Of a stretch of 64,000 nt of DNA, positions 334 through 59,349 are shown piece by piece. The notes under the pieces are model-generated. The model was not told where the DNA came from. It worked only from the letters and a program-made list of their open reading frames with translations, and did no database searches. The first letter of the stretch is position 1. Every line of letters begins with the position of its first letter. The translations under genes and the position numbers were made by a program. The stretch is from Malacoraja senta (Eukaryota), in contig CM075989.1 in the NCBI GenBank assembly GCA_038087875.1, positions 7,566,001 through 7,630,000 on the forward strand, read 5' to 3'.

Positions 334-930
334 ATAGAAACAAAATGCTGGAGTAACTCAGCTGGACAGGCAACATCTCTGGATAGAAGGAATTGGTGAT
401 GCGTTTAAGAAGGAACTGCAGATGCTGGAAAATCGAAGGTAGACAAAAGTGCTGGAGAAACTCAGCGGGTGCAGCAGCATCTAAGGAGTGAAGGAAATAG
501 GCAATGTTTCGGGCCGAAACGTTGCCTATTTCCTTCGCTCCATAGATGCTGCTGCACTCGCTGAGTTTCTCCAGCACTTTTGTCTACCTAGGAATTGGTG
601 ATGCTTCAGGTTGAGACCCTTCTTCAGATTGAGAGTCAGGGGAGAGGGAGACAGAGATATGGAAGGGTAAGGTGTGAAAATGAGAAAAGGGGGACGAAGA
701 TCAAGGAACATGTAGAATAGATCATTGTTAGCGAGGGGAAGATGACGACAAAGCATACAAAGATAACATTTAATCAGGAGGATAGTCAGACTGGTCGGAG
801 AACTGGGATGGGGGAATGATGGAGAGAGAGAGAGGGAAAGCAAGGGTAATTTGAAGTTAGAGGTCACTATTCATACCGCTGGGTTGTAAGCTGCCCAAAT
901 GAAATATGAGGTGCTGTTCCTCTAATTTGA
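334..930 (-). mobile_element. Older Penelope 3' end containing a nested fold-back insertion (403-589)
   Basis: Minus strand ~930-870 encodes KLEEQHLIFHLGSLQPSGMN (GIY-YIG C-terminus), followed by a pyrimidine-rich tail and a degenerate hammerhead box at ~600-628. Confidence 0.75.
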
Positions 931-1453
931 TTTCTCACACATCCCAAGGACTTGCAGATTTGTAGGTTAATTGTTTTCTGTAAATTGTCCCTTGTGTATA
1001 GGATAGAACCAGTGTACAGGAGATTGTGGGCTGAAGGGCCTGTTTCCACGCTGTGACGCGAACTAATTAAAAGTATTGAAAGGCAGATTCTGGGTTTGAC
1101 CGATGTCCAAATACTTGTTCTCTTTGGATGGTTTGTTTTGAATCGACCTCTGTCCAGTGCTTCTGATTTGTTGTTCTGTGTAGCTCGTGACACATGCTGG
1201 CCACCATCACATGGGACACGTGTAGACCCAAGACAGTGAGCACCAACTTCGCCGCTGTTTAACCACAGGAATGCGGGCCAGCTTCATTGTGTGGCTTCCC
1301 CAGCGGCTTTCATGCCCAACTAGTGCCTCAGAACATGTTCAGTGCCCTGACAACTCTGAACTAACACTTCACCCACTACTCCCACTGCTGCACTCCCAAA
1401 GACCAAGATATGCACATTACTCTTGGATTCCACTGCAATAATGCGCACTATAA

Positions 1454-1650
1454 TGTCTCAGAAGGCAGTGGAGGCCAATTCTCTGGATGCTTTCAAGAGA
1501 TAGTTAGATAGCGGAGATAGCGGAGATAAAGGATATGGGGAGAAGGCAGGAACGGGGTACTGATTGTGGATGATCAGCCATGATCACAGTGAATGGCGGA
1601 GCTGGCTCGAAGGGCCGAATGGCCTACTCCTGCACCTATTGTCTATTGTG
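1454..1650 (+). mobile_element. Short CR1 3' end with TATAA TSD
   Basis: CR1 3'UTR; TATAA at 1449-53 and 1651-55; the empty site is visible in the paralogous copy at 2011-2027. Confidence 0.8.
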
Positions 1651-2441
1651 TATAAAGGCAGCTTCCTCAGTGGCTTTCATAAGATACAATACGATAGAAC
1701 TTTATTTATCCCAGGAGGGAAAGTGATCTGTCAACTGTCATAAAAAACACAAAATACATGAAACATGAAATTAAAGAGACAAATGAAATGGATTGGGGAT
1801 GTGTAAAGTTTGGGGAGGGGGGGAGTCCATCTCAGTCTCAGTCTACCCCATGACAGAAAGGGGAGGAGTTGTACGGTTTGATAGCCACAGGGATGAGCCT
1901 CAGAACATGTTCTGTGCCCCAACAACTCTGAATTAACACTACTCCCACTGCTGCACTCTCTATAGAGACCAATGCACGCACATTACTCTTGGATTTCACT
2001 GCAATAATGCAAACTATAAAGGCAGCTGTGTTTGAATGGATCTATGTGCCGGATGTAGAGGACAATGCAAGCCTCTGTTGTACCGTGCTGTAGTACACGT
2101 GACTGAGGTTGGCTTCTTACCCCCAAGTCTTTAATCGCAGTTTTTTTTGCAACTCTCTCGAACCATACTTTGTTTCTTTATCCTTCCATCGTCTCCTATT
2201 TCCTGCTCACCGGCTTCCTCTCCCCCTGCAGCGCGCTCTCCCTGACAGAAGGGGCACTTGATAAATGTTGCCACGCCGCTCTTAACGATTTACTGCATGT
2301 TGAGAAAATTTGAGCCAAGGCAAATCGCCGCTCGAAGGTCCCCCAAAGGGAAGGGAATACGTATTTTACTTAACAAATGCCAAGTGTCCACTGCCTCTAC
2401 TTTTTTTCTATTCAAATTCCCAGCTGGTCTAACAGAGTTTT

Positions 2442-6232: not shown

Positions 6233-8849
6233 ACAAATGGTGCTCTGACAGAGCACCATTCCTCCAGTACTGTACTGGAATATTAGACCAAGAATCTGTG
6301 CACAGACTTCATCGCACAACCTTTATACTGAATTTCCAGAAGAGCCGCAGAAAAAACATCGAACTACAGATGCCAGAATCTTACATAGAACATTAAGTGC
6401 TGGAATTACTCAACAGCTCAGGCAGTATCTCTGGAGGACATGGATAGTTGAAATTTCAAGTTGGGATCCTTCTTCAGAGTCACAAATACCCAATAAATAT
6501 AAGCATCACTATTAAGAAATGAGTCCCTTTCTCTACAGGAGTTGCATGTATAGTTTTCAGAACCATTCATAAAATTAATGAATTCATAAGAGCACCAGCA
6601 CAGCAATAAAACAACATCTTTGATCTCTTGATTTTTAAAGATCCGTTTTGATCATCACGGAAACTGCACCAAATTGGATGTAAGGGATGGAAAAAAAATT
6701 AAAGATTGATTTTAATCTTTACCTTGCATTCATTTTGAATTCATTTGAAAACTGTGGGCAGAATATACACTTGATCTCAAACCTGGATGAAATTTGACTT
6801 GAAAAATTAAGCAACTTGCATCTTCTCAGATCGGCTTGTGGTAACACACAGGAAAATACGTGATCATCCGTGTTCAGGGAGGGCTGAGTAGTGAGAATAT
6901 TTCTCTCGGACAGGGAATGACCGTAGCTCCTAGGCTCCAGAGGAGGACTTGGTCAACCACGAAGCTCCGAGCTTACCCAGTGAATTTATTCTCCCCTGAC
7001 CTGGGCTGGTGGGACAACCGTGTTATTTAACCCAACATTAAGTAACTTATGTGCTGACACACAGTGGGTGGTAGAAAGAGCTCAATGTTGAGGTGGTTTT
7101 GAGCATAGTAGAGTCATCTGTAGAACAGTAACATAAATTGAGTGAGGAGGGAAAGACTGCGGTATGTGCCAGAATAATTAAGAACAAGATTGATTGCTTG
7201 CCTTTTGAATGACTATGTTTGAAATGCTTGTTTCAATCAAGAAACTGGAGAGGATCTTAAAGGAAACTGGAAGGATTTAAAAAATCAGTGTGAGGATATT
7301 TTTTAATAAGAAAAACAGGTTTAGGTTCACTGTATCGAAGCACAGCGAAAAGCTTAGTTTTGCAATCAGATCAGATATGCCATGCTTAAATACAATCCAC
7401 GTACTAATGTTATCCATGTTCTCCAGAGATGCTTCCTGACCTGCTGAGTTATTCCAGCACTTTGTGTCCTTTCAAGTCAAACTCAAGTACAACAGGTAGA
7501 GCAAAGGGGAAGGTACAGAGTGCAGAATATACTTTAGATCTCAACATTGTAGCGCATCAGTTTCAATGTCCGCCATGGGGTAGAAGTGAATTCATGTTCA
7601 TAGATTATAGGAACAGAATTATGCCATTCGGCCCATCAAGTCCACTCCGCCATTCAATCATGGCTGATCTATCTTTTCCTCTCAACCCCATTCTCCAGCC
7701 TTCTCCCCATAACAACTGACACTCGTAGAGCCATAGAGTGATACAGTGTGGAAACAGGCCCTTCGGCCCAAGTTGCCCACACTAGCCAACATGTCCCAGC
7801 GACACCAGTCCCTCCTGCCCGCGTTTGGTTAAAAACTTGTTGAAGATGCTCACTTTGCAACTTAAAACAAAAAGCTTATGTAATGTAAATGTGATTTTTT
7901 TAACCAGCTTTTGAAAACCACCTTTTCATTTTTTCTGATGAAGGGTCTCTGTCCTGAAACTTTATCTCTCCATAGAGGCTGTCAGACTTGCTGAGTTTCC
8001 AGCCGGAACGTTGTTTCTATGGTTGTAGGAATTCTTAGATTTTTATAACACATTTCTTTATCCTCGGGTACATCGCAAGCTGCTTCTCATATTAAAATTA
8101 AAATGGTTGAACGTGCTGCGATTATTGTTACCTTTGGCAACTGCGGCAACCCATTTGTGTGCGGATACCCCACGCTGGAGTGAAGTGGTCTGGGTGGTGG
8201 TTGCGGGATGTGTTGGCCAGTTTACAAGTCCTTGACTGCCCTTTGCGACTTGTATCATGGCATCTTTACAATGAAGCCAAAGCATTGGAAGCAGCCTGTA
8301 GTTCTGTCACCTTCATGTGTAAAACACAACGATACGCCCTGATCAACACAGCACAAATGTCAGCCTAAATTTGAAATTACTTCCTTTGGGACTGGCAGAT
8401 GGATTTCAGCTAGATTGTTACCGTAAAGGAAAAAATTGAGAACATTTAAATAAAAATGCTCTCGAGCACACTTTTTAAAATTCCTGTTTCCGTGCCAGTG
8501 GAAAGTAGACTTGCTATCTTTCAAAATGAAATTGGCCAGGCTGGAGACGAGGGCCTCATTCCCTTCTCTGCTGCAGCGGTGATCAAATCTATCACAGACA
8601 TTTCTGTCTCCGGAGGAGGTGATTTGGTCGATGGTGTCTCTGCTGCTGAGTAGGCTCCCTGGGTAAGGCCCACGTCCCAGCTCACCACATAACACATTAC
8701 AGATTTCAAGTACTCTAACAGGTGGTTCTAAAGCTAACTTTCTCTCCTGTTCTTTCCAAGAGGTGCTTCCCACTGCAGTTGGGGGCGAGAGAATATTTTG
8801 TCAGCTCTCCTCTAAACAGTCTTGGCATCAGTGAAAATTGGTAGACTTT

Positions 8850-9150: not shown

Positions 9151-9999
9151 ATGGTAACTCAAAGGTCGACACTTAGCTAATGCGCCAAAGGTACCCTACC
9201 ACATAATTCTATCTAGAATACTTATATCTAAATGAAGTTTCATTTAAAACTTCCTAAACAAAAGGAAACAAATCCCAGCCTGGTCAATATTTCCACATAA
9301 TATAATTTTCCACCTCTGAAAACATGCTCGTAAATCTCCTCTACATCTGACTGGACACTCTGCTGTTGGAAAGATGGAATTAAATTGAAAATACTCCAGG
9401 GAAGATTTACGAGGATGTTGCCAGGATTCAAAGATGTTTCGGGTCGAGACCCTTCTTCAGAAGAAGAACCGTCTGAAGAAGGGTCTCGACCCAAAATGGA
9501 GTCTGAAGCAGGGTCTCGACCCGAAACATCACCCATTCCTTCTCTACAGAGATGCCGCCTGTCCCGCTGAGTTACTCCAGCTTTTTGTGTCTATCTTCGG
9601 TTTAAACCAGCACCTGCAGTTCCTTCCCACACAAAGGTTTAATAGGACCCTGAGGGGGAAACTTTTTTCCACACAGAGGGTGCTGGGTGTATGGAATGAG
9701 CTGACAGAGGGCAAGTTGTACAGTTGGTCAGTTCAAGGGTAGTTTGTAAAAATGCAGGTAAATGGGACTAGCATAGATGGGGCATCTTGCCCAGCTTAAT
9801 GAATTGGGCTGTAGGGCCTGTTTACATGCTGTATGACTATATGACTCCAAGGTGCAGTTATACCCTACTAGTAGTTCAGAAAGTGCTGACTATACAGGTT
9901 CAGCATGACCTCGCTGCTCTATCGTTCTATTCCTTGGCTAATGAAGTAAAATATCTTGTACACAATCAAAGATCCATAGGGTGATGAAGAAGGCATGTT

Positions 10000-10560: not shown

Positions 10561-11599
10561 CAATTCCACAACACACTGACCTTCAGAAAACCATAAACAT
10601 CCCAAGGTCCCTCTGTAGAAAAAAAACAACTTTCTGGAAGAACTCAGCGAGCCAGATAATATCTGTGACGGAAAATGGACTGACAGGGTTTTGGGTCAGA
10701 AGCCTTCTTCAATCTGATTTCCTTACTTGAAGCTCTTTAATGAACCGGATGAGATTTAATGACAAGCGGATCTCCACACTAAAACTAGCTGAATGAACCA
10801 CTCCACTCTCCTTGTGCGGGTGACCTGTCAACAGATTAAATTATGATACGAGCTTGCATTTGCTTCAAACCTTTCACAGCTTAAATTCATCCCAGTTTAA
10901 TATACAGCCAATGGATTCTTATGAAGTTTAGATGGTGTGATTAGGCAGCATTACTACTCTGGAAAGTCAAAGGAAAAGCATAGCGGGATATGGAGCGAGA
11001 GAGAGAGAGAGAGGGTCAGCTGTGATCATATTGAACGAAAAAGAGACTTCACGGAATAAATGGTGTTCCCTGAAGTTTCTACCTCTGCATGATATTGTCT
11101 GAGGCAATTTTCATCAACGCTTTCTGCAAGAGTTTACAGACTTGTGCTAATGTTTCTCTGCCCCACCATCCCCCTTGGAAAGAGAGGGCTTCTCATCTTT
11201 CTTCTCTTGACGGTAAGGCACATGGGCGGAATGGAAAGTTCATTGCTCATGCAACTTTAGTAGCTTGTCTATGATTCCTTTTTCCAAGTTATCTTTAGGT
11301 TGTTGGCAATCTAGGGAATATTACAAACAGGTTTTTTTTTTTTTCTGACTTCTCGAAGCAGTTATTCGGAAAATTGAGAACTAGTTATTTTTTCCATGAT
11401 CATTCCGTGAATGTTTTTCTCCTGAATCCCAGCAATATGCTGCTACATAGAAATAACACTTAACATTGCCACCGCTCTTGCTCCGGACTCTCTCCTTCCA
11501 TCATGGCTCCGTACTGTACATTGCAGGGTCATTACTCTCTAACAGGAATGTTAATGGACAAACTGCCCTGTGTAAGTTGTTGGGAAGAGCAGCAACCAA

Positions 11600-12066: not shown

Positions 12067-12387
12067 ACCTACACACATTTGCCCAAGGCATTTCTTGGCT
12101 CTTGTTGACCCTTCGAGAGCCCACTTGAGTTGTTTCCTCCATGCTTTCTATTCCTCAAGTGCCCTGTCTGATTTCATCTTCTTAAACCTCACATACGCTT
12201 CCCTTTTCTTTTTGACCAAATTTACAACCTTTTCGGTCATCCACGGTTCCCTTACCTTGCCATCCTTCTCCTTCCTGGAACATGTCGGTCCTGAACATTG
12301 ATCAATGGCCTTTAGGACTCATCTGAAGAAAGGTCTCGACCCAAAACATTACCTATCCATGTTCTCCAGAGATATTGCCTGACCTGC

Positions 12388-12643
12388 TGAGTTGTTGCCT
12401 CACAACGCCAGAGACCCTCTGGGTGTTGCCTGCATGGAATCTGTACCTTCTCCCTGTGACCACGAGGGTTTTCTCCGGGCGCATCGGTTCCCTCCCACAC
12501 TCCAAAGACGTACAGGTTTGTAGGTTAATTGGCTTCAATAAATTGTAAATTGTCCCTAGTGTGCAGGATAGTGCTAGTCTGTGGGTGATCGCTGGTCAGC
12601 GCGGACTCTGTGGGCCGAAGGGCCTGTTTCCACGCTGTATCTC
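12388..12643 (+). mobile_element. HE1-like SINE abutting the L1 poly(A) tail
   Basis: V-domain and 3' tail ending GCTGTATCTC. Confidence 0.8.
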
Positions 12644-24960: not shown

Positions 24961-25721
24961 ATTATTGTTTTCTTCTTTCCCCCCTACGTTGGAGGGTATG
25001 GTCTGGTTTTTGGATGACAGTGACATAGACAAAATGTTTTTTTTTTAAGCTGTTGAATCTGAAAGACTGCAATCTGTGTAGATGGAAGTATCTTTTCAAA
25101 CTTTAGATAGAGATCAACTGTAGAAGGGGCTCGACTCCAAACATCACCCATTCCTTCTATCCAGAGATGCAGTGTGTCTATCATCTGTACTAATATTGCT
25201 TGATAATGGCCAGTGTGACTTTTGCAATGGAACACTACACATAGCCACAAAAACCTAGAACAGGAGCTTAAACTGAAGACAGGAGAGCAATTGGGTATGT
25301 AGCTCGATTCATTGCACTCTCCTGAATCCATCTTCTGGGGGTGGTCTATGGTGAAGATAACTCCGTAGTCCCCAGTGGCTCTGTATCCTTGTTGATGAGT
25401 GACTATGTTCTCTGCCAATTTGTATTATAGGCCGTCATGGAAATCTTGAGTCAAGAGGATTGCAACACCCAGTGTCAATATCTATGGAACTGGTTTTGCT
25501 ACTTCTAAAAATACCTAACTGTGTTACCTGCTTCCTGTGGTTAGTCAAGTCACATTTATTTATATAGCACATTTAAAAAACAACTCTCTTTGACCAAAGT
25601 GCTTTACATTTGTTATAAGAATAGTATAAACAAACAAACTACATACATATATACATACATATAGTCCTCGCTCAGATGATTCTAAGAAGGAAATGTTGGA
25701 GCAGATTCAGCAGTCTCAGTG

Positions 25722-28572
25722 GAGTAGTCACAGAGATGGGACCGGCCCACGCCACCACACCGCCCTCTAGCCCCGCCGACCCCGACTCCACTGCTCGAGG
25801 ACTCCTACCGTCGGGTCCGCCGACCCTCGCCACTGCACCGCCCTCCAGCAGCCCGCAGCCGTCGCCTCACCTGCTGACTGGTCTCTGTACTGGGCCTGAA
25901 GCCTCCACGCTGCTCACTCCCACTCTCCTGGGTTTGACTCCACTGGGTCCTAGTGCTAGTCTGCCTTTACCTGGTTACCTCAGTGTTAGTTCCACTGATT
26001 CTTCCCCATCCTACTCCAACTATGGGACCCCTTCTCTTCCCCACCCACACTACAGCCCTCTCACCTCCCCACCCCCTGACCACCCACCACCCCGCCACCA
26101 CCCCCCCACCACACATCGCCTCGTCCCCATTCCACCCACCTGCCTTCCTCCGGCCCCAACCCCATCCCTGCCGGGTGTTCACCATCCCCCCCGACCTCCC
26201 CCTCTCCGACATCGAACGGTGTGTCCTCAGCAGAGGTCTTACCTTTGTCCCCTTCCGTCCCCACCTCAATGAGTTCCGCGCCCTCCATGACTTGGAACGC
26301 TTCTACCGTCGCCTCCGCCTCACAGCGCACTTCCATGGGAAGGAGTCCTCGCCCCTCACTGATGACCCCTTTTCCCATCTCCAACGCACCCCCTCCTCGT
26401 GGAACCCCCCTCGTAGCCTTCTGGCTTTAGAACTCTTCATCAAATACTGCCGCCGTGACATCAACCGCCTCAACTTCTCCACTCCCCTGTCTCACCACAA
26501 TCTCTCTCCCCCCTGAACGTACTGCCATCGACTCACTCCGCAACAACCTAGATTGGGTTATCAAACCCGCCGACAAGGGAGGTGCCGTGGTAGTCTGGCG
26601 CATCGATCTCTACAAAGCTGAGGCCACGCGCCAACTCTCGGACACCTCCTCCTACATACCCCTGGACCATGACCCCACTGACGAGCACCAAGCCACCATC
26701 TCCAGCACCATCACCGACTTCATCCACTCCCATGCCCTGCCCGACCGAGCCTCCAACCTCATCGTTCCCCAGCCCCGCACGGCCCGATTTTACCTTCTCC
26801 CCAAAATCCACAAACCTGACTGTCCCGGTAGACCCATTGTCTCTGCCTGTTCGTGCCCCACCGAACTCATCTCCGCCTACCTCGACTCCATCCTATCCCC
26901 CTTGGTTAAATCCCTCCCTACCTATGTTCAAGACACCTCAGACACTCTCCGTCGTCTGCGCGCATTCCACTCTCTAGGCCCTCACCCCCTCATCTTCACC
27001 ATGGACGTCCAGTCATTGTACACCTCCATCCCCCACCAGGATGGTCTCGAAGCCCTCCGTTTTTTCCTCGACCGAAGAAGCAACCTATACCTGGCCACTG
27101 ACACCCTCCTCCGCCTAGCGGAGCTGGTCCTTACCTTCAATAACTTCTCATTTGACTCCTCCCATTTCCTCCAAATACAAGGCGTAGCTATGGGCACATG
27201 CATGGGCCCCAGCTACGCCTGCCTCTTTGTCGGGTACGTAGAACAATCCTTGTTCAATACGTACCAGGGCCCCATCCCCGACCTCTACCTCCGCTACATC
27301 GATGACTGTTTTGGTGCCACCTCCTGCACCCACACACAACTGACTGACTTCATCCGCTTCACCACCAACTTCCATCCGGCACTCAAATACACCTGGACCA
27401 TTTCCGACATTTCCCTACCATTCCTTGACCTCACTATCTCCATTGCAGGTGATAGACATCATACCGACCCACTACAAACCTACCGACTCCATGGCTATCT
27501 GGACTACACTTCTTCCCACCCTGCTTCCTGTAAGGACTCCATCCCCCACTCTCAATTTCTCCGTCTACGCCGCATCTGCTCCCAGGATGAGGCATTCCAC
27601 ACCAGGCATCCGAAATGTCCTCATTCTTCAGGGAACGGGGGTTCCCCTCCTCCACCATAGATGAGGCTCGCATCAGGGTCTCTGCCATTACCTGCAATAC
27701 TGCTCTCTCTTCCCATCCCCCCACTCACAACAAGGGCAGAGGCCCCCTAGTCCTCACCTTTCATCCCACCAGCCGTCACATACAACAAGTGATCCTCCGT
27801 CAGTTTCGCCACCTCCAACGTGACCCCACCACTCGCCACATCTTCCCATCTCCCCCCATGTCTGCCTTCCGCAAAGACCGCTCCCTCCGTAACTCCCTTG
27901 TCAATTCTTCCCTTCCCTCCGTACCACCCCCTCCCCGGGGTACTTTCCCTTGCAACCGCAAGAGATGCAACACTTGTCCCTTCACCTCCCCCTCGATTCC
28001 ATTCAAGGACCCAAGCAGTCGTTCTAGGTGCGACAGAGGTTCACCTGCATCTCCTCCAACCTCATCTATTGCATCCGCTGCTCTAGATGTCAGCTGATTC
28101 TACATCGGTGAGACCAAGCGGAGTCTTGGCGATCGTTTCGCCGAACACCTCCGGTCGGTCTGCAATAACCTACCCAGACCTCCGGTGGCTCAGCACTTCA
28201 ACTCCCCCTCCCATTCCGTATCTGACCTCTCTGTCCTGGGTCTCCTCCATGGCCACAGTGAGCAACAACCGGAAATTGGAGGAAATGCACCTCATATTCC
28301 GCTTGGGCAGTCTACACCCTGGGGGCATGAACATTGAATTCTCCCAACTCTGCTAGCCCTTGCTGTCCCCTCCCCTTCATCAGCCCTCTGGTTGTCTCCT
28401 CCCATCCCCCAGCCCTCGGGCTCTCCTCCTCCTCCGCCTTTTTTCCTTTTTTCCTTTCTTCTCCCCACCCCCTATCAGTCTGAAGAAGGGTTTCGGCCCG
28501 AAACGTTGCCTATTTCCTTCGCTCCATTGATGCTGCTGCACCCGCTGAGTTTCTCCAGCATTTTTGTGTACC
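25722..28572 (+). mobile_element. Penelope-like element (Poseidon-type; RT + GIY-YIG), frameshifted, with 16-bp TSD
   Basis: LSRGLTFVP, KPADKGGAVV, LPKIHK, GRPIVS, GVAMG, RYIDD; GIY-YIG region IYCIRC...YIGETKR..DRFAEH...HLIFRLGSL at ~28060-28356; TSD TTCAGCAGTCTCAGTG at 25706-21 and 28573-88. Confidence 0.95.
28480..28507 (+). ncRNA. Minimal hammerhead-ribozyme-like motif in the Penelope 3' region
   Basis: CUGAAGA-A-GGGU[UUCG]GCCC-GAAA-C-GUU: catalytic-core boxes, stem II with tetraloop, and a loopless palindromic stem III (AACGUU); stem I weak. Confidence 0.65.
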
Positions 28573-32244: not shown

Positions 32245-33550
32245 CAGGAGGCTACTGTTAGACAACATCTCAGCCTTCAACACCACAATACCGAATAAAC
32301 CCATCGCTAAACCCCTGGAACTTGCCTTGGGGTCTCCATCTGCAACCGGTTTCTAGACTTCCTGGCCGGCAGAACCCAGTCTGTTAGTATGTAGAAATCA
32401 GGAACTGCAAACGCTGGTTTACATAAAGACAGAGAGAGAAAGTGCCAGAGTAACTCAGTGGGTCTGCAGCATCCCTGGAAAACATTGGTAGGCGGAGTTT
32501 CAGGTTGGGAGCATGCAGGTATAGCAGCAGTGAAGAAAGCGAATGGCATGTTGGCCTTTAGAGGAGTTGAGTATAGCAGCAAAGAGGTCCTTCTGCAGTT
32601 GGTATAGGCCCTAGTGAGACCACACCTGGAGCATTGTATGCAGTTTTGGTCCCCTAATTTGAGGAAGGACATTCTTGCTATTGAGGGAGTGCAGCGCAGG
32701 TTTACAAGGTTAATTCAGCGATGGCGGGACTGTCATATGCTGAGAGAATGGAGTGGCTGGGCTTGTATACTCTGGAGTTTAGAAGGATGAGAGGGTATCT
32801 TATTGAAACATATAAGATTATTAAGGTTTGGACACGCTAGAGGCAGGAAACATGTTCCCGATGTTGGGGAGTCCAGAACCAGGGGCCACAGTTTTGGAAT
32901 AAGAAGTAAGCCATTTAGACAGAGACGAGGAAACACTTTTTCTCACAGAGTTGTGTGTCTGGGGAATTCTCTGTCTCAGAGGGCAGTGGAGGCCGGTTCT
33001 CTGGATACTTTCAAGAGAGAGCTAGATAGGGCTCTTAAAGATAGTGGAGTCAGGGGACATGGGGAGAAGGCAGGAATGGGGTACTGATTGGGGATGATCA
33101 GCCATGGGCACATTGAATGGCGGTGCTGGCTCGAGGCCGAATGACCTACTCCTGCACCTATTATCTATTGTCTGTTGGGAGTCTTCTGCTGTCTGAAGAA
33201 GGGTCGCAGCCCAAAACTTCACTCCATTGCGCTCCAGATTGTTGTCTGACCCGCTGAGTTGCTCCAGTACTTCTATCTCTGTTAGTATTGGTCAGACATT
33301 TCCTCGACCCTGACCTTTGATGCTGATGTCGCCAAGAGCGGTGAGCTCAGACCCTTGCTCTACTCCTGTACATCCATGACTCTGGCCAAGTGTCGTGCCA
33401 AATCGACCTTTAAGTTCACCAAATGATGCCACAAATGTCAGCCCAGATCAACAACAACAGGCATAGGAAAGAGACTGGGAACCTTATGCCGTGGCGTCAG
33501 GACAACAACCTAGCTCTTAATGTCAGGTCGATGAAGGAGTTGGTTGTTGA
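32245..33550 (+). mobile_element. Decayed Rex1-type RT fragment with a nested Penelope-tail fold-back and a CR1 insertion
   Basis: SAFNT-like and LDFL..RTQSV residues at 32270-32390 resume at 33280-33550 (..QDNNLALNVRSMKELVV); inner TSD TCTGTTAGTAT. Confidence 0.7.
32512..33173 (+). mobile_element. CR1 3' fragment with 7-8-bp TSD
   Basis: Homologous to the 3' part of the 21.9-25 kb CR1; GTTGGGAG at 32504-11 and 33174-81. Confidence 0.9.
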
Positions 33551-38260: not shown

Positions 38261-39135
38261 ACTCTGGTGTAATCCATCCAAGTCTTGAATTTGGGTTTTG
38301 TAGACGTTGCAGACATTGTTGATCCGTTTCGGAGGGGTTTTACCTTGTGTGAGATAGTGTTGAGAAAGTCCCGAGGGTACTGTATGTACAAAAGCAAGAG
38401 TTAGTGAAAGTATGGAGATTTACAGTTCAGGGTGAGGCCATTCGGCCCATTATATTCAAGATGGCTAAAAAAGGACTTCAGATTCCAATTAGTTTAGCAG
38501 CACATGCACTGGGGTGCAATATATTTCTTGCTCACATGGACCTTGGAGTACACAGTATACGTGACAATAAAAACAAGGAATGCAAAACAGGTTCTGGCGG
38601 TCAAGTGCGTTCCAATTGCCATTCTAGGCTAGGGCGCATCGCGACCATCCCTAGGCCCAATTCCCTGGAGGATTCAACCTTGAAAAGAACTCGCCCAATA
38701 TTTTTTTTATAAATTGGAGGATTTCCACCTTCACTACAGGCACTGAGTTCTAGATGCTGTGCTGCATGGCAAATAAGATTATGCTGAAATCCACCTTTTG
38801 TCAAGTTCCTTCCCTTCCACTTTGGTTTGTCTTCCTTGTCAGACTGCACACTTGAGTTGGATATGAGCCCGACTGCTGTGTACGTTTGTGATTAACTTGC
38901 TGATGCAAGATTACATCTCTAACTGACTGACTGATTGATTGAAACAGACTCTTCGGCTCACAGAGTCCATGCCAACCATCAATTATCAGTTGACACAGGG
39001 TCTGAAGAGGGTTCTCGACCCGAAACTTCACCCATCCCTTCTCTCCAGAGAGGCTGCCTGTCCCGCTGAGTTACTTCAACATTTTGTGTCTGTTTTCGGT
39101 GTAAATCAGCATCTGCAGTTCCTTCCTACACACCG

Positions 39136-39442: not shown

Positions 39443-40014
39443 CAGTTGACACTAGTTTTGTTATCCCATTTTCTCATCCACTGTCTATACAGTAGGGGCA
39501 TTTTGCAGAGGCTAATTAACCTACGAATGTGTAAACTCCACACAGACAACACCCGAGGTCAGGATCGAGCCCAGGTTTCTGACGCTGTGGCACAACAGCT
39601 GTGCCAGCTGTGCCACTGAGCCGTCCTTATGACACATTCAACAAATAATGCATTTATTGATGTTCATGTGAACTCTAATTATTCTTGCATATGGAAATCG
39701 CCGGTAACCCAGCACGATCAAACAATGCTTTTTGGAGATAAAGCATTCGTGGGTCAGGCAGCATCTGTGGAGAGGGAATCGTTTTTGGCTGCTGAGCTGT
39801 TGTTGAGCGGCATTCTGCTGCGGAGTGGCTTTCAGAACCACCAGGTGCTGAGTTTGTGTGTTTCCGCTCCGCTCCCTCAGCTGCAACAGGCTGTGAGGCC
39901 AGTCGGCTCGATAAAGAATAGTCTCGCACGGCAGGAGGGCTGGTGCCCTGGGCAACACAGTGATGGGCTCAGCAGGGGGACCAGTGGGTAGATGAGAGTG
40001 TCAAAACTCTTTGC

Positions 40015-40211
40015 CCTCGGGCTCCTCCTCCTCCGCCTTTTTTCCTTTTTTTCTTTCTTCTCCCCATCCCCTATCAGTCTGAAGAAGGGTTTCGGCCCGA
40101 AACGTTGCCTATTTCCTTCGCTCCATAGATGCTGCTGCACCCGCTGAGTTTCTCCAGCATTTTTGTGTACCTTCGATTTTCCAGCATCTGCAGTTCCTTC
40201 TTTAACACTTT
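40015..40211 (+). mobile_element. 5'-truncated Penelope 3' tail carrying an identical hammerhead motif (40079-40106)
   Basis: Near-identical to 28412-28575; TSD AACTCTTTGC at 40005-14 and 40212-21. Confidence 0.85.
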
Positions 40212-41467: not shown

Positions 41468-43409
41468 TTCTGACAAACACTAACAGAGATATAAAGCGCT
41501 GGAACAACTCAGCGGGTCAGACACCAATCTGGAGAATATGGATAAGTGACGTTTTGGGCTGGGACCCTTCTTCAGACAGAAGAAGAGTCCCGACCTGAAA
41601 CGTCGCCTACCCATGATTTCCATGTATCCTGCCTGACCCACTGAGTTACTCCGGCAATTTCTCTCTCTCATTTTGTAAAGCAGCATCTGCAGTTCCTGGT
41701 TTCAACATACTAACTGACTGGGGTCTGGGGCCAGGAAGTCTAGAGGCCGGTTGCAGATGGAGGCCCGAAGGCAAGGTCCAGGGTTTAGCGGTGGGTTTAT
41801 TCGAGATTGTGACGTTGAAGGCTGAGATGTTGTCTAGCAGTAGCCACTGCCGCCCTTCAATGCTATGGTCAGTTTTGAACTCGTGCCCTGGTCAGCAGTT
41901 CAAAGCTATGTTCTGGAATTCATGGTTGGAGAGGCGAGGGAAGCAGACTGGTGAGTGTTGTATACAAAATGTAACTGCAGTGGGGAAGGTACAGGGAGTG
42001 ACTTGGTCAAGCAGAATTCCGTGATGGAGGAATGATGGGAAACACTCAGCATGTCAGGCAGCATCTGTGGAGTGAAAATCCCAGCTCATGTTTTGTGTTA
42101 GTGATCTTTTGATTTGATTTCAACCTTGGTTCACCCCATCGGATTTATTTTTGTGCACCACTCCCCCGCGTTCTCAGTGAGTTAAAACCAACCTGCTTTC
42201 CTAGTTTGGATAAATGGTCAAGATGAGCTAGAAAACCCCATTTCCAGTAGAAAAAGGATAAATAATTTGGGACTTGAATGTTTGAGTTTAGTTTATTGTC
42301 ACGTGTACCGAGGACCTGTGAAAAGCATTTGTTGCGTGCTAACCAGTAAGCGGAAAGACAATACATGTTTACAATCAAGCCGTCCACAGTGTGCAGATAC
42401 ATGATAGAGGGAATAATGTGAACAGCATTCAGTGCAAGATAAATGTTGCTGTCAGAGGAGAGATTTAAAAGAGTGGAGTGATTGTAATGCGTGATTGCAG
42501 ATCCACCTCTGTGACTCGCACACACTGAGTCGTCAGGTTGGGCGCCATCTTGGATGTAATTGGGCCAGGAAGGTGTTACTGGCACAATAGGAGGTGTAAC
42601 TCACGCAGCGGTTCTTGTTTCCTGGAACCTATTACCTGGAATAACCCGATACCTTTCACACACAGTGTAGGAGAGAACTGCAGATGCTGGTTTAAATCGA
42701 AGGTGGACACAAAATGCTGGAGTAACTCAGCGGAACAGGCAGCATCTCTGGAGAGAAGGGAGAAGGGTCTTGACCCGAAATGTCACCCATTGACTCTGAA
42801 GAAGGGTCTCGAGGCAAAACGTCACCCATTCCTTCTCTCCAGAGATGCTGCCTGTTGTGCTGAGTTACTCCAGCATTTTGTGTTTACCTTCCACACGTTA
42901 TCCCAAGGCCGCCGAGCAGTGAATGGGAAGCTGGGATTGAGCGAGAAAACTTATTTTTCAGTCAATGTGGAGATGTTGCATTTATTCTCTGCCTGCAATT
43001 AAGATTTCCTACATTGAAATGTTTTTTTTGTTGTGTAAATCTTTTATTGGGCATACACATGAAAAACAAAAATGCAAATAATGCGAGCTTTGACGTTCAA
43101 TTTTTTGTTTGTTCCTGGTTGAAGGTTTCTCTGGCTTATTATTTAAATGTGCAGCTGTGACACTGTGCATTAGGCTGACGGGAAAGCTCTTGAAATTCTT
43201 GTTTGTTCTCGTTGTTGAAGGATCAATGAACTCGACTCCAAGAAAACAAATGCCCAGTTGTTGCTGAGCTGAATGGAATGTTCAATCAATTGCGGTCTGT
43301 GCAATGGAAAGGCCATTGTGTCCCGGCACTGTCATACGTGCCCTGTGATTTGATATATATGGTATGGTAGGAGAGTGGTTAATTTAGCTCAGCAGTTCAT
43401 CTGGCTCAT

Positions 43410-43720: not shown

Positions 43721-44719
43721 ATTTCCCCTCTATCAAGCCCTGATCTACCTAATGCCAACTTTGTGCTTAACAACTTTATTTGTTCTGAGCACTCTTTCAG
43801 AGAATATTCATTCTGCTGTACCACTGATTTATATGTTAAATACTTGTGGAAATAGTTAGCACATTGCATTGTGCTCGCTCGTGGGTTGGTGTTATAATGT
43901 AAAAGCTAACTAAATAACCCGTCAGGACACTCTGCAAACGGTTGGCATTTGGGAAAATTAGACCCACGATGAGTGAACCAAGACACGATCTGTTTCCTCG
44001 CAGGACAAATTTACTCCAGCTAGTTACGGCGTTGAAGATAGACACAAAGTGCTGGAGTAACTCAGCGGGTCAGGCAGCATCTCTGGAGAAAAATAAATGC
44101 TTCTCTTCAGCCCCCCTCCCCCAACCACAATCAGTCTGAAGAAGGGTCCCAACCAAAATGTCGCCTATCCATGTTCTCCAGAGATGCTGCCTGACCCGCT
44201 GAGTTACTCCAGTATTGTGGTCTCTTTTTGTAAACCAGCACCTGCAGTTTGATGTCTCCCCACTGACACTCCGCCAACAATACAATGCACAATGTAACCG
44301 TCTTGCAGAACAATGCAATGTTGGGGCACTGATCCAGAGAGACATTCGATCAGCTGCTTAAAGCAGAGCTCAGATATTGAATCTGAAATTCCATCCCTAA
44401 ATTAAAAGATGGTGAACTCAGATTATAGGATGCACGGTGTGTGGCACTTAGCTGGCAAGGAACCTTGCCATAACTTTGTCCTCACTTGTAACTGAAGATG
44501 TGATGGTACACCTGAGATGGACGTGTTGGTGAAGATTTGTAGGCTGCATCCTCCCTGCCACAGGATACCCACTGATCTCGACTGGCCTGTCCCACATCTA
44601 GTTACCTTCCCCGTAACCTGTGGACACTGGGGCCTGAGTGCAAAGTTAGCATGGCAGAGATTGTAAATCAAAGGGGTTTCTTAATCCATGAAAACTGAGC
44701 TCAGACAAGTCCGTATTAA

Positions 44720-45050: not shown

Positions 45051-47235
45051 GCCTGGGAATCTGAAATTTGGCAACTAGTATTCGTTGGATGTTTTCATTT
45101 GGATTAGTTTAATCAGCAAACAGGAGTCAGTAACTATTGCGAACAGCAGCATGATGGAGCAGATTTTTCTTGTTATTCGGCAGGGAATCAGAGCTGGAAC
45201 AGACTTTGAACCCTGATAGGCAGCGCTCCCATGCCGGCCATGGATCCCAGTTCTCCGTGTCTCTGCACACTGTCCCCTCACTCTCGCTAACTCTAACCTC
45301 CATCTTACACATACCAACAGGACAAATTAAAACACTGTTTGTTTTCTCCCAGTCCCGTGACCTCTCGCCACTGACTGTGTTTCTTTGGCCTCTGATCATT
45401 GACATGCTGGCTCGCATGTTGGACTTCTTCGTCTGAGCCTCCCGCTGGTTTGGTCCCAAGGGAAGAATCCAGACCTTTCCCATGCGACTGCAGTTCCTTA
45501 TTGGGTAGGAAGGAACTGCAGATGCGGGCTTAAACCGAAGATAGGCTGGAGTAACTCAGCAGGACAGGCAGCATCTCTGGAGGGAAGGAATGGGCGACGT
45601 TTCGGGTCGAGACAACTTCTTCAGATTGTGTCTATCTGCAGTTCCTTCTTCCTGGTCACATCCCGGGAAAGCACCTCATGTCTGTCGGAAGCCACTGGTC
45701 GCTGAACCCAGACCAATGATGAAACAAAGACAACGCAGGACTGGAGTAACTCAGGCAGCACTCCCAGAGAACATGGATAGGTGACGTTATGGGTTGGAGC
45801 AGGAAGACAGGTGGGGGCAGGACAAAGCTTTCTTCACACTGATGAAGGGGGTAGAAAGAAAGCTGGAAGAGAGGGGCAGGACAAAGCATCGCAGGTTAAA
45901 GGTAAATATAGGCGAGGTAGGGCGTGTGATAGGCAGGTGGTTGGACAAAGAAGGCCAGAGATGAAAAAAAACAGGTGCGAGATAAATTGTGAAGCCAGAG
46001 GAAACAATTGTGAAGCCAGAAGAACAGAAAAACAATGATCTGTGACCTGTCAACACTCCTCCTTTCATCTCCAACCACAGTGTATAGGCATTGGATGTCT
46101 AGCTGCCTCTTTAAACCACCATATTGATGCCCACCACCCTACGCTGTCCGATCGCTGCCACTGCGGCAGGGAACGTTGGGGGCGGTGCACTGCTGCAGCG
46201 GGTGGGGCTGCTACTTACAGTTCCAGCAACCCTAAATGAGTGGGCAATTGATGGACAAATGAGGGAGAATGAATTGCAAGGAAGGTAGACAAAAAATGCT
46301 GGAGAAACTCAGCGGGTGAGGCAGCTCCATAGATGCTGCCTCACCCGCTGAGTTTCTCCAGCATTTTTTGTCTACCTTAGATTTTTCCAGCATCTGCAGT
46401 TCTTTCTTAAACATGAATTGCAAAGAAATAGTTTGGGAGGGGAGGAGGAGTTATGAAATCCAGCACACACGATAGTCTTCTGCACCCATAAGGAAACATG
46501 ATAAATGTAAATGATATACGGAAATTAATTGAAGCACATAATCTGTCATTATTTCATTGTTGTGAGTGGATTGTGTAGTGGAGGAAGTGGCTTCTCTATT
46601 TAACAGAGCAGGAAATTACTTCAGTTCAAAAGGACATGATTGGCAGTGAAACGCCCTTGGCTGATGTGGGGCTTTCAATGATGCCACACAAACAGACTTC
46701 ATGGTCCTCGCCTCACTGATACACCAAGGCTGTTTTCTCAGGACCATCCTCGCCGCACCTCATTGCTCTGGCAAGGACTGTTATCCTTACAGCCCATCCC
46801 GGTTGTGCAAGAGATTTCCAGCTAGTCCCACTCCCTCTGCCCCCCCCCCTCCCCCTCCAGTCCCGTAAACCTTTCCCACTGAATGCTACCATTAATCCTG
46901 CCATCATGTGTAGTGGAGGAAGTGGCTTCTCAACTTAACAGAGCATACCATTAGTTATGGGCCAGTATCTCTAAACTAAACCACTTCGTTTTTCTAACCT
47001 AGTCATACTTCCCTTTTCCCATTTACTGGAATCTTTGCGTTCCCCACTTCCTGTCTGATCCACAATCCTCCTGAGCTGTTGGATTACTTCCCCTTTTGCC
47101 TTCAACCTTCTCCCAGCTGACTGACTATACTTCATGGGTCAGACATGTTCTTTGTTCACCGGCACTGAAGTTCTGAGACAACACTGCTGAAGTTGGACAC
47201 CTTCATTTTAGATTAAATTCCATGCAGTCTACATA

Positions 47236-49586: not shown

Positions 49587-52500
49587 TGAGGCCTGGAGTT
49601 GCCTTCCTGTCCCTTTTTCCTGCTTTAAAACACTCCTTAAAGCCCAATTATTTCAATAGGCTTTTGATTACCAAGCTAATTCCCAATGACTTAGTAGTTA
49701 TAGAATCTTGTAGATTATACGCCCTGTGAAACACTATTGTATGTTTAGCTGTGCGAAAGATGTTCTGTAAATATTCGTTCTTATTGTTGACCACCTCAGT
49801 TGTGGTTGAAGTTAGGAATTAATTGAACTTTTCTTCAAAAGTGCTTAAAAGTTCTTGCGGTTGTCTGAACACTTGTCCACTCCTCAAGCTCACAGTGTGG
49901 TGTTTCCCAGAACCCTGCTTCGTTGTGTAACTCGATTTTCTACATTTCTTTATGCGTTGCCTCTTTCGAATGTTGTGAAAATGCATATTTGAGATATGTA
50001 ATTTTGAAAGAATCAATTGGCCGGGGGATATTGTGGTATTGTCAGTACTCGTACAGAGGGACAGCCCCATAACACTAGGGGAGGTTTGGTGACTGATCGC
50101 AAACATCAAAGGGCCTCATTACCATAATAACCCTATCACTCTCCAATCCACAAAGCAGAATTTCTTTCAAACAGATGCAAAAGCCTTTAGAGTGCAATGT
50201 TTCAACTTTACACCCACATCCACACCCTTGCCTCCAGAGGAAACATTTGGACTGTTCGTTCACTTAAATACAACAACAAAAATGGACTCTCATTTACTCA
50301 GCACGTTTTCAAGTCTTCCCAAAGTGCTTGACATTTACATTTAAATTTAATTTAATTGACGTCTGATTAAAGGTCTCAACCTGAAATGCTTCTCTCCAGA
50401 GATGCTGCCTGATCCACTGAGTTACTCCAGCATTTTGTGTCTATCTTCGGTGTAAACCAGAATCTGCAGTTCCTTCCTACACATTTAATGTATTAGATTG
50501 TAAAAGAGTAATATAATGAAGGAAACAATGAGATTATGTTTCATTTGTACATTTGGGTGAGAGTCTGGGTGTATTGTGTACAGTATGGGTCTCTTTAAGG
50601 AAGAATAGTAAGATTAAACGAGAACTTACCAGTTTGAAGTTTGATCTTTATTTTATGAGGAGTTACGTTGGTGATTACATGAGGAACCCCGCCAGTGCGC
50701 CTGCGCGTCAATCTTCGAAGCAGCGGTGTGAAATCACAAAAAACAACAAACGAAGTAATATAGTAACATAATAAAACAAGTAATTCAAGAACTTCCATCT
50801 GACCTTTATGATAGAGGGTTGGGTCGTGGTGGGCACGTAATCACCAACGTAACTCCTCATAAAATAAAGATCAAAACTTCAAACTGGTAAGTTCGCGTTT
50901 AATCTTACTATTTTACTTCGGAGTCACGTGAGTGACTACGTGACGATTTTAAAGCTTTGTGATTTCATGTCCGCAGACAAATCCCGGCTTCTCACTGCAT
51001 TGATTGACTCGGAACGAGAAATAATCAATAATGCATGAATAATAAAATTTGCCTGACAAATGCAGTAAAAAATTCATTTATTTGAATAAAAGAATTAACA
51101 GTATCCCCTTTAACCCAGGGAAATTTAAGCAGAACTTAATATAGTATCTGCAAACAGCCCCGTATTGGCAATAGGCCGATGGTAAAAGTGTTGAAACACC
51201 AACTTATTAGATCACCCGGCGGCTGTGAAAATATGGTCGACGGGACGTCCTTCGCCCTGGTCGTCAATGTTGCTGCTAAACTGAATGGAATATAAAACCA
51301 TCAATGTTCACACCTGCAGCAACCAAAACTTGTTAAAATAGTCTGAACTGACACTATCTTGTATGGTTTTTCGTGAATGATAAACAATCTTGTTTTCATA
51401 TTTCATAAGACCTTTGTAGCCTCAATGTATTGCAACAAATATGTCTTAACATATAGACATGGATCCATAGAATATGCTAATAAAACACTCTTGCATCCTT
51501 TCACACCTGATCCTACTTCATTTGAGTAGGTCATAAAATGTAAAACATAACATAATCCTGAGGTACTTCCATCCTGTGTATCTGTAACTTTTGTAATGTT
51601 ACAAGTGCCATAAGCATGACTACCTTCATGCTGAACTTGGCCAAATCAGAATCGTACCAAGACTCCATAGATGAAGTAGCTTAAAACAACTCTATATTCC
51701 AGATTCCCTCCTAGGTTTAGAAGGTCTGGAATTTAAATTCCTTTCATTAATCTGGAAATAAAAGAACAAAACTCAACAGGATGTCTTTCCAACCTCATCA
51801 ATAAAAACAAGGAATAATATACTTCTGTCTGAATAAATCGCACTAACTCAACCCCTTAAATAGAGGTAAATCCAACACATTTGAGACATGTGCCATACAA
51901 CATTCCATATTCTTTTGATACACAGAAAATTTCCCCCCTCATTCTTTACATAATGGGAAAGCAGCATTTACAGAGTCACAACTCAGATTCACAAATGTAC
52001 TGCTTTTGAGTACTCTTCCGCCAGACTGCTGTAAGCATGTTCACAGCATGCCCAGACAATCCTCTTTTTTAAAACCTGCATCCATACAGGCATATGACGG
52101 ATGTTACTCTCCAATTATCGAATACACCAGAAACTTCCTTCTTTTGGGAACATTTATCGGAAACTGTGTCATAAATTCCAATATCAAAGGGAACCATGGC
52201 TGCGTAGACCTGTCTGGTACCACGAATACCCCAGAGGCAGCATACTGCTTCATTTTAAGCAGACACCAATTTATGAGACAGGATGAAGTAAAATGCCTAT
52301 AACAACATACCATCCTAATATAGCGAGAAACATCCATCGCTACTGTCTCCCGATGTAGTCCCATAACACATATCTCTGTAACTGGTGATTGAGTCTGGAT
52401 GGAAACAAGTCATATCTGGCTTCCCAAATCTGACTATTATATCATTAAAAAATCTTAAGGTTAAACATCCATTCTTTGTTATCATGGAAATTCCACCCAT

Positions 52501-57228: not shown

Positions 57229-57261
<33 letters not shown>
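54544..57261 (+). mobile_element. 5'-truncated L1 (different family from the 12.6-19.2 kb copy) with 8-bp TSD
   Basis: RT (LDAEKAFD, RQGCPLSP, YADD) and CDKC..H..C; AATAAA 57215-20; poly(A) to 57261; TSD AGAACTCT at 54536-43 and 57262-69. Confidence 0.95.
54546..56877 (+). pseudogene. Truncated L1 ORF2 (RT + C-terminal domain) with one +1 frameshift near 56708-56711
   Basis: Open for ~720 codons; after the C run the alternative frame reads TPTIKMWIIEMTETL...TWSPFIDYL..* (stop 56875-77), collinear with the intact ORF2. Confidence 0.85.
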
Positions 57262-57267
<6 letters not shown>

Positions 57268-59349
57268 CTCACAGAGCAGCAAATTGTACTGCCAGGAATA
57301 GCCCATCTGGCAGCTGCCGTCTTCGCTTGTTTTGGAAACTCTGTTGACCCTGTGCACGCGCCTCATCAATGAGGGTGCTATCAAGCAGCCCTTTACTAGG
57401 TGCTGCTGACCTGGCTTCTGGAGCCTGGTTCTGACATCACTCCTCCTGGAGTATGTTTTGTTGGAGCAACCTGTGTACAGGTTCTCCATTTGGAATATCC
57501 ATTGGAATGGCCTAATTCTGATCCTAAAACTTATGAGTTTATGAACAGCACTGGAAACGGTTTAGGAACAGCAGGAACTTTAAGCACTTTTGTGGAAAAG
57601 CACAGGCATTTATTCCCAGCTTCTACCACAACTGAGGTGGTCAACAATAAGAACAAACATTTATAGAACATTGTTAACCGTTCAGAGAGGGGTTACTGGG
57701 GTGGTTAGCTTCATGGGGAAAGGTTACACAGGCTAGGCTTGGGGTCACCGCTCGAAATAAGGGGTGTGTGGGTGTGTGTGTGTGTGGGGGTGGTGGGGGG
57801 GGGGGGGGTTCAGAAGGGTGAGAAGGATTTTGACCGAAATGCATAATACCTGAGTGTTCTTGACAGGGTGGATGTGGAGATTGATGTCCCCGCTTGGGGT
57901 CAACGCTCGAAAATAAGGGGCTCGCTCATTTAGGAATGAGACGGGGCAGATTTTTGCTTCTCTGAAGGAACCCTGCTCCCATTGTCCTTTTGGCAAGCGA
58001 GCGTCTGAAGTTTTTTCATAAGCAGAGGCATATAGATTTGTGATAGTGAGAGATTGGAAGGCTACATCCAGTGTTGAGCTTGCAGTGGGAAAGGCAGAGC
58101 AGCCTCAAGATGCCGGGAGGTGTATCCATGCGAAGATAGACACAAAATACTGGAGTAACGCAGCGGGACAGGCAGCATCTCTGGAGAGAAGGAATGGGTG
58201 ACGTTTTGTCAGGGGAGGGGGCGGTACAGAGATAGAATGTAGTCGGAGACAGTAAGACGGATGGGGGTGGGGATGGAGAGAGAGGGAAAGCGAGGGGCTA
58301 TTTGAAGTTAGGTGTATTCATGCGCCTGGTCTGTGTGTTCATTGTTTAGTTTGCATTGGATTATCAATAGGTTCTGCCTGATCTGGAATATAGGGCGAAA
58401 AATCCTACGGTGCTGCATTTGAAGAGAAGGGGAGATCCCTCTAATGTCCCAGGACCAACACCTCTCATCATATCGGAAGAATATGTGTAGGAATGAACTG
58501 CACATGCTGGTTTAAACCAAAGATAGACACACAATCACCGTCATCCATTCTGTAACTTGGCATCATGTTTAGCACAAACATCGTGGGCCGATGGGCCCGT
58601 TCCTGCGCTGTGTTGTTCTACCACTTGCCAGGCTTCTCTCCCCCCCCTACTACCCCATCAGCCTGAAGGAGAGCTCTGGCCCGAAACGCCACCTGTCCAT
58701 TCCATGCCATGCCAGGTGCCGCAAGACCCGCTCAATTCCTCCAGCACTTGGTGCTTTGCTTAAGATCACAGCATCTGCAGTTCCTTGTGTCTCCATTAGA
58801 CATTTTATCTTTGTGTAGGGGATTTTTTTTTTTTTGTGTGCAACTTCCTGCATGCAAATTGGTCGTTGCCTGCCCTGTGTTCACCAAAGATCCTACAGCT
58901 ATGGGATTCTTTGGTGTTCACCTGTCACTTCCAAAATACCTCTTTGTGACATTCCCGGATGGTGCAATGCCGCCTGAATGTTGTTACCAGAAGGCTGCAC
59001 TGACCCACCAAGTCGTTAAGCTGGTGGCTTTCACTGCCATTGTGCAATGTTGAGCTGTTTCTGAATGGATGTGACGCAATGTGGCCTCTTTGCTCCCCTG
59101 TGGCCTTACAGTAAAACAAGGGTGAAGCATTTCCTGGTTTCACGCTCTCCTGGGGATTTGGCCCCACCCCTTCCTTCAGCTGACTGGTCTTGGGTTTCTG
59201 TGTAATTTCTGATCCTGGTAGCGATCGCCCATACATATGCTTGCCGCAGAGCAGCAGAGAGGAGAGTAGGCAGAGAGCGGGGTGAATGAGGACTGCTGCT
59301 TGCCTCTGAGGTGCAGAGTGGTGTGAGCTCCAGAGTTTCTCCAGCACAC

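Follow-up and report, generated by a model that had tools for sequence, protein, structure and literature searches.

Penelope-like retrotransposons (Penelope-like elements, PLEs) carry minimal hammerhead ribozymes with the published consensus CUGANGA-H-G...C-GAAAN-palindrome-UH (PMC4209133). Here we describe such motifs in a 64,000-nucleotide stretch of the skate Malacoraja senta (GenBank assembly GCA_038087875.1, contig CM075989.1, positions 7,566,001 to 7,630,000 of the forward strand; hereafter the window), where they recur in a dispersed family of repeats. Very probably, these repeats are the 3′ pseudo-long terminal repeat (pLTR) and tail of a skate PLE family with the known minimal hammerhead; most are dead insertions of 90–130 bases with decaying cores, likely made by a reverse transcriptase (RT) that starts in the tail and runs off the 5′ end of the RNA. 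The family extends a known feature of PLEs to skates and is not a new ribozyme class, its copies being mostly relics. Our literature search found no description of skate PLE hammerheads or of the 5′-end pile-up reported below; most subscription papers and Repbase lay outside that search.

The skate motif shares with the minimal hammerheads of PMC4209133 the CUGANGA box followed by one extra base, the G10.1–C11.1 pair, the loopless palindromic 15.2–16.2 stem and the UH cut site. It also shares their position in the pLTR, the predominance of solo copies from truncated elements and the presence of several subfamilies per genome. The 40 species of that survey include no cartilaginous fish. The skate stem I, at 2 bp, lies at the short end of the published range and the local density, if extrapolated, would far exceed the 4,000–9,000 copies per genome given there; the accessible text describes no pile-up of 5′ ends. 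In Poseidon PAc of Anolis carolinensis (PMC11167929), the hammerhead likewise sits just upstream of a region of ~110–120 nt with two RT start sites and an optional tail; RT proceeds to the template 5′ end, cutting and extension occur on both strands of the target, and the ribozyme cleaves only with protein. PAc belongs to a different clade, since the skate element has a Cys linker, and the available portion of that paper describes neither the PAc RNA start nor short run-off copies.

Neptune-clade PLEs (PMC8557442) resemble the skate element in their C-terminal GIY-YIG domain with a Cys linker, pLTR hammerhead, optional tail of 30–40 bp and adjacent inverted, 5′-truncated copies; the long skate copy differs from them in its clean 16-bp flanking target-site duplication. 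Penelope of Drosophila virilis has a TATA-less, initiator-type promoter in the pLTR, upstream of the hammerhead, which the skate family would share; its RNA starts 46 nt upstream of a 75-nt intron whose end lies immediately ahead of the hammerhead (PMC2377424), whereas the start suggested for the skate lies 3 nt before core residue C3. Non-LTR retrozymes, finally, are tandem repeats with a complete, mostly canonical hammerhead in each unit and are expressed as circles (PMC7229834; bioRxiv 10.64898/2026.07.22.740005). The skate repeats are like them in their type I hammerhead, non-coding short copies and kinship with the PLE pLTR, but are dispersed, minimal, mostly broken and not bounded by cut sites.

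A Penelope-like element and its hammerhead copies

The copy at 28.4 kb stands at the end of a coding element, whose parts are as follows.

25722..28572 (2,851 bp), +: Penelope-like element, 5′-truncated and frameshifted, with RT, Cys linker, GIY-YIG, 3′ pLTR with hammerhead, and tail
25706..25721, +: 16-bp target-site duplication, 5′ copy, identical to the 3′ copy
28573..28588, +: 16-bp target-site duplication, 3′ copy
26509..27606, +: RT core in a single open frame (Pfam RVT_1, E=1.7e-6)
27940..28356, +: Cys linker CX4CX2C (~27950) and GIY-YIG endonuclease, split by frameshifts (three-frame translation; tblastn with the GIY-YIG-bearing relatives P0124 and P0154)
28357..28479, +: pyrimidine-rich pLTR/3′ untranslated region ending in TCAGT, initiator-like and splice-acceptor-like, with A28477 as the putative RNA start
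28478..28509, +: intact minimal hammerhead of subfamily B, predicted cut 28507/28508 (strict descriptor, alignment)

By its RT + GIY-YIG open reading frame (ORF), this element is a PLE. The closest relative of the RT is a shark protein, 70% identical, and tblastn of intact RT + GIY-YIG relatives (800–950 aa) was colinear over ~26,175–28,325 in several frames; Pfam gave no GIY-YIG hit in the window's own frameshifted pieces. The element is without a 5′ pLTR. Its Cys linker motif matches the CX2-5CxxC feature of Neptune linkers defined in PMC8557442, which makes membership of that clade likely. The hammerhead follows the ORF stop by ~125 nt and is in turn followed by the tail. The motif had first been read, from the sequence alone, as a minimal, dimer-type type I hammerhead on pieces of Penelope pLTR and tail, and this identification holds: the copy at 28480 lies directly behind the RT + GIY-YIG ORF and the motif fits the consensus of PMC4209133. 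The tail block of every subfamily (e.g. 28543-28559, +) forms a 4-bp hairpin, GCUG...CAGC, which is conserved across subfamilies like the ribozyme core and may be a candidate RT-binding or start signal.

We searched the 64,000-base window for further copies using an nhmmer model seeded with 10 copies, obtaining 42 segments, 41 of them at E<0.01 (24 on the + and 17 on the − strand); family segments cover 3,722 of the 64,000 bases (5.8%). The CUGANGA box is present in 22 copies, or ~1 per 2.9 kb; the earlier estimate of one per 4–5 kb was right about a dense family and too low in value. All 15 sites named in the sequence-only reading hold a copy, with C3 at 627-, 7935+, 9460-/9473+/9503+, 12323+, 28480+, 31756+, 33193+, 39002+, 40079+, 41575-, 42796+, 44136+, 45624-, 50363+ and 58663+. 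A strict minimal-hammerhead descriptor, run on the window and on 100 dinucleotide shuffles, hit twice (28480+ and 40079+), where the shuffles averaged 0.01 hits and never had more than 1, so the motif is not a product of chance. The remaining 20 of the 22 box-bearing copies fail the descriptor, and intact copies are thus rare. Rfam returned 14 matches at E<=5 in the window, none to a hammerhead and all under the gathering score, and pattern scans for further copies had no match in either metagenome_contigs or viral_contigs. The copies outside the 28.4-kb element are distributed as follows.

327..633, mixed: tail fragment (-), two subfamily B copies paired head-to-head with stem II at the centre (401-523 -, 502-597 +) and decayed hammerhead 627 (-) with long pLTR; an endonuclease fragment lies at 864-943 (-)
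6355..6481, -: short decayed copy, overlooked in the sequence-only reading (nhmmer)
7934..8003, +: short decayed copy (nhmmer)
9433..9635, mixed: inverted-plus-tandem cluster with three boxes (9460-, 9473+, 9503+), cores all broken; the tandem joint is G then A(-3)
10627..10711, -: decayed copy, also overlooked earlier (nhmmer)
12320..12395, +: short decayed copy, G12>A (nhmmer, alignment)
25118..25177, +: short decayed copy, likewise overlooked (nhmmer)
29703..29785, +: copy whose start falls inside the core (nhmmer)
31750..31888, +: short copy, paralogue of 39002 via local duplication
32398..32512, -: decayed, paralogous to 41577
33189..33296, +: decayed, paralogous to 41575
38996..39135, +: short copy, G16.2 mutated (nhmmer, alignment)
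40013..40205, +: second copy of subfamily B, matching the 28.4-kb end at 97% identity, with ~65 nt of pLTR, an intact minimal hammerhead (40077-40108) and a long tail
41470..41703, mixed: head-to-head pair (41575-, 41577+) centred on the base just before C3
42667..42895, mixed: inverted tail and partial tandem (42757+, 42796+) with broken cores; the joint is G then A(-3)
44031..44259, mixed: inverted tail and a copy with ~25 nt of pLTR (C3 at 44136+, G12>A)
45500..45841, -: two copies, of which 45624- is short and 45837- has a long pLTR and a disrupted core
46274..46412, mixed: tail-only pair, head-to-head
50360..50482, +: short decayed copy (nhmmer)
58097..58208, -: copy that keeps upstream pLTR and has lost most of its hammerhead by deletion
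58658..58793, +: old divergent copy with pLTR

The other copies are 72–97% identical to the end of the 28.4-kb element and, judged by eye, make up at least three subfamilies. The regions at 31.7–34.1 kb and 38.2–41.8 kb are a rearranged local duplicate, with pieces in both orientations that are 82–89% identical; three copy pairs lie inside it and are hence non-independent. A CR1-like fragment seems to interrupt one arm of this duplicate. There are six head-to-head copy pairs in the window and two 3′ length classes, ending near +93 and ~+120–125 from C3, with the distal ~30-nt tail block reached by 13 of 26 aligned rows. Both the pairs and the two classes match the inverted copies and optional tail known for PLEs (PMC11167929, PMC8557442).

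Decay and predicted folding of the cores

Every core column keeps its majority letter in a 26-row alignment, and the full core is found in 2 of the 22 copies. The extra A after the CUGANGA box and the loopless ACGU stem III are present in the alignment as previously described. Core guanines in CpG context decay after insertion, the catalytic G12 included: G12 is mutated in 8 of 25 rows and G16.2 in 12 of 25, compared with none of 20 for G5 and 1 of 21 for G8 (Fisher p=1e-5). Because G12 is the general base of the hammerhead (PMC6155905), copies mutated at this residue cannot be active.

Across helices I and II, 75.8% of 128 cells pair and slid controls give 8–49%, values that come from one window of decayed copies in which covariation is not above that of shuffles. 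Stem II had been proposed to vary while keeping its pairing. The U-A and U.G variants are indeed as described, but the changes are one-sided, as are the differences between subfamilies in stems I and II (U-A versus U.G), and the covariation score of 0.154 compares with 0.169 in shuffles, 396 of 500 of which are equally high. Stem I, put at 2–4 bp in the sequence-only reading, has 2 bp here, plus at most 2–3 pairs past a 2x2 loop.

Folding predictions for the intact copies give a probability of 0.004 for stem I in the monomer, and the double hammerhead is predicted at −7.1 kcal/mol, against −27.2 for the most stable two-strand fold. Pairing is also predicted between the core and the upstream pLTR. 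In an RNAalifold run on 12 copies, the 4-bp tail hairpin was the sole structure, lacking two-sided changes, and the hammerhead fold did not emerge. Without help, the hammerhead is predicted to fold unfavourably, which agrees with the low or protein-dependent activity reported for PLE ribozymes in PMC4209133 and PMC11167929. This result is compatible with activity in master elements, and any ribozyme function likely belongs to such elements, through dimeric and/or protein-assisted cleavage, rather than to the dispersed copies.

The common 5′ boundary of the short copies

The pattern of 5′ ends is the sole part of these data that could teach something new. The pyrimidine-rich pLTR is kept in 6 of the 22 box-bearing copies and missing from the other 16. 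Sixteen of the 22 begin within ~6 bases of C3, 13 of those within three (boundaries by eye), and since some are duplicated or paired these 13 starts amount to ~10 independent events. The flanks of short copies show no kinship with the pLTR and score against one another like random pairs (mean 13.9 versus 11.9); 9 of 120 flank pairs exceed the 99th percentile, eight of which are explained by inverted, tandem or duplicated copies. The six long copies have upstream sequence in common (mean score 26.0), with a pyrimidine fraction of 0.75–0.96 in each, ending in CAG or a decayed form of it. When 26 anchored copies were screened automatically for target-site duplications, none came out cleanly for the short ones; at the copy at 31756, ~4 bases lie by eye between a probable target-site duplication and the copy start.

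We also aligned contigs of four public runs to 27950-28700, listing 24 of 1,734 loose-end rows and 12 of 340 joint rows. Loose ends pile up at 28477/28478 in all four runs (227; 285+289; 45; and 26+25 contigs), and the flanks there are unrelated (agreement 0.32–0.39). Summed depth across this boundary in one run, X1, climbs from 2.9M to 12.8M to 21.6M; the depths of that run (21.6M on the motif versus 41–48 on the unique flank) are not copy numbers. No loose end falls at the cut site among the matches listed (24 of 1,734 rows). An added G on A28477, where the genome has C, occurs in 3 of the 12 joint rows listed (of 340), and both tandem joints in the window read G then A(-3). Because the reference copy itself terminates at 28573/28575, we drew no conclusion on 3′ ends from the loose ends there, and two runs that were guessed to be RNA hold contigs of other organisms, may be DNA and were not used for expression.

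The sequence TCAGT resembles the initiator consensus and also the splice-acceptor consensus, and an added G is a known mark of cap copying. On the account that we favour, tentatively, a capped RNA start and run-off to the RNA 5′ end explain the short copies. We read these copies as run-off cDNAs because of the pile-up at 28477, the placement of its A within the initiator-like TCAGT and the G added before A(-3). The proposed sequence of events sets out from the arrangement at 28.4 kb, where a copy forms the end of an RT + GIY-YIG element flanked by 16-bp target-site duplications. RT would begin at internal tail sites, as we infer from published work on the anole PLE, giving rise to the two 3′ end classes. 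The template would begin at a capped A three bases before C3, and run-off copies would begin with the ribozyme and in some cases carry a G derived from the cap. The head-to-head pairs would result from priming on both strands of the target, together with annealing at short palindromes. Once inserted, the cores decay at CpG sites, as the alignment shows. The shortness of stem I (2 bp) would likewise follow from an RNA start at A(-3). In vitro, RT runs to the 5′ end of 5′-truncated templates (PMC11167929), and tandem and inverted PLE insertions have been described (PMC8557442).

A more far-reaching version is possible, if doubtful: the skate PLE transcript has as its first base a capped A, three bases upstream of the core, so that the ribozyme leads the RNA, the cut would remove a 31-nt capped leader, and reverse transcription from tail to cap seeded some 10^5 or more 'strong-stop' insertions, a SINE-like class (short interspersed element) without its own master gene. 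If true, the sites of PLE initiation and termination would be preserved genome-wide as a fossil record, offering a direct handle on the role of PLE hammerheads, which PMC11167929 and PMC8557442 call unclear. Should the pile-up mark the RNA start, one could propose that uncleaved capped RNA is the template and that cleavage decaps it.

Several points weigh against reading the family as dead run-off copies of a Neptune-type PLE. The start at A28477 is drawn from contigs and sequence rather than from mapped RNA starts, and the kind of joint in the rows with an added G is not stated, 12 of 340 joint rows being listed. In D. virilis the RNA start is followed, 46 nt on, by an intron that stops just short of the hammerhead (PMC2377424; PMC4209133). 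The clade assignment stems from a linker motif, not from a tree. In addition, the core is more uniform than the tail across rows of the 26-row alignment (229 of 249, 92%, versus 1528 of 1924, 79%), which fits selection on master elements, in a comparison biased by anchoring on the box and in which two tail blocks are about equally conserved.

The 5′ boundary could instead arise from DNA-level mechanics, with RT stalling as it enters the C-rich pLTR or with cDNA annealing or folding back at the TCAG-T-CTGA palindrome and at microhomologies, an explanation that we regard as rather unlikely. The head-to-head pair 41575/41577 is centred exactly on this palindrome, the remaining pairs join at different microhomologies, and the predicted pairing of upstream pLTR with the core could favour such events. 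Most short copies, however, have no inverted partner at that point, and a stall alone would not predict the same G added before the same A in separate joints.

We consider it less probable still that the boundary is a splice acceptor, in which a pyrimidine tract and CAG precede C3 as at the end of the Penelope intron, the short copies derive from spliced templates, and intronic copies in the sense orientation, such as 28480 and 40079, are cryptic acceptors in host pre-mRNA. The pyrimidine tract upstream of all six long copies (fraction 0.75–0.96), with its CAG or decayed ending, is of the expected kind. Exons often end in AG or G, and such ends would mimic the pile-up at −2/−3. The boundary at 28477 could be an acceptor because the intron of D. 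virilis Penelope ends just before the hammerhead, at helix I (PMC4209133). Against this, the short-copy flanks are unrelated, with no upstream exon in common, ~4 bases part the probable target-site duplication from the copy at 31756 (by eye), and what is added at joints is a G before A(-3) rather than an exon.

Abundance, the NADK context and neighbouring repeats

That the family is a large retrozyme-like population of autonomously transcribed self-cleaving units, circularising and spreading via circular RNA, as the sequence-only reading envisaged, is very improbable: its density (22 box-bearing copies in 64 kb), the two intact copies on the sense strand of the host gene NADK, the two partial tandem joints and the presence of retrozymes in one chondrichthyan genome (Li et al., bioRxiv 10.64898/2026.07.22.740005) would suit it, but the window has no hammerhead tandem array (0 of 20 TRF rows hold the motif) and no cut-site-bounded units, both partial tandems have broken cores, as do most copies, with CpG-type decay, copies start before the core whereas RNA that had been cleaved or circularised would give units ending at the cut site, no loose-end row so bounded is among the matches listed, canonical stem I and loop contacts are absent (2-bp stem I; no Rfam hammerhead match), and the folding values (−7.1 versus −27.2 kcal/mol; monomer stem I probability 0.004) are unfavourable. 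Retrozymes may occur elsewhere in the genome.

The related idea of a very large genomic population fares better in one respect: copy number is probably very high genome-wide, by extrapolation, whereas a retrozyme-like nature is unsupported. With a genome that we take to be ~2 Gb for this skate, extrapolation from the one intron would give several hundred thousand copies, about one-tenth of them intact; the depth ratio in run X1 is of the same order, but is no count. Strict counts of solo minimal hammerheads from truncated PLEs stand at ~4,000 in coelacanth and ~9,000 in Xenopus (PMC4209133), and for axolotl a figure of up to 120,000 appears in a section title of PMC7229834. The skate number would therefore be high yet not unprecedented and, since solo minimal hammerheads have already been reported in bulk, the phenomenon itself is known.

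Two stretches near the end of the window match NADK.

63781..63912, +: NADK coding exon; all 44 of 44 aa agree with the NADK-like protein of Leucoraja erinacea, and identity to that of Amblyraja radiata is 98%
59350..59427, +: similar to an alternative first exon predicted for isoform X2 of skate NADK (E=3e-8; 81% over 26 aa)

A motif scan and tblastn found no upstream coding exons of the long NADK isoform in the window, which therefore probably lies inside one long NADK intron. The match to the isoform X2 first exon is only 81% while that of the next exon is 100%, and the prediction may be weak; a long TC-rich microsatellite (59675-60290) lies just past it. The proposal that many copies share the NADK sense was not borne out: enrichment on that strand was rejected both for all segments (24+/17-, p=0.35) and for box-bearing copies (15 of 22 on +, p=0.13). 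Both copies that pass the strict descriptor are on the NADK strand, 11.6 kb apart, and these two intact copies allow a test of the effect of an intronic hammerhead or acceptor-like leader on the host transcript.

SINE-like repeats are very frequent on both strands (e.g. 2442-2616, 5683-6233, 8842-9159, 21461-21765, 47998-48211 and 61444-61636), and several hammerhead copies sit inside or beside them; we take them to resemble elasmobranch HE1-type SINEs. A seemingly intact two-ORF long interspersed element (LINE) of L1 type spans 12,750-19,060 (-), with a 331-aa ORF1-like frame at 18065-19060 and, ~1.2 kb apart, an open 1,271-aa endonuclease + RT frame at 13054-16869. A second L1-type ORF2 fragment at 54492-56834 (+) is open over 780 aa, with RT and a zinc-binding domain. 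Further LINE reverse transcriptase fragments, presumably CR1/L2-like and others, lie at 21968-25044 (-), 30078-31041 (-), 19822-20343 (-), 32560-33134 and 61069-61380 (-), with Pfam RVT_1 at 22598-23848. At 34585-35240 there is a nested inverted repeat resembling a miniature inverted-repeat transposable element, with arms at 34585-34726 and 35099-35240 (84%) and an inner hairpin at 34848-35019.

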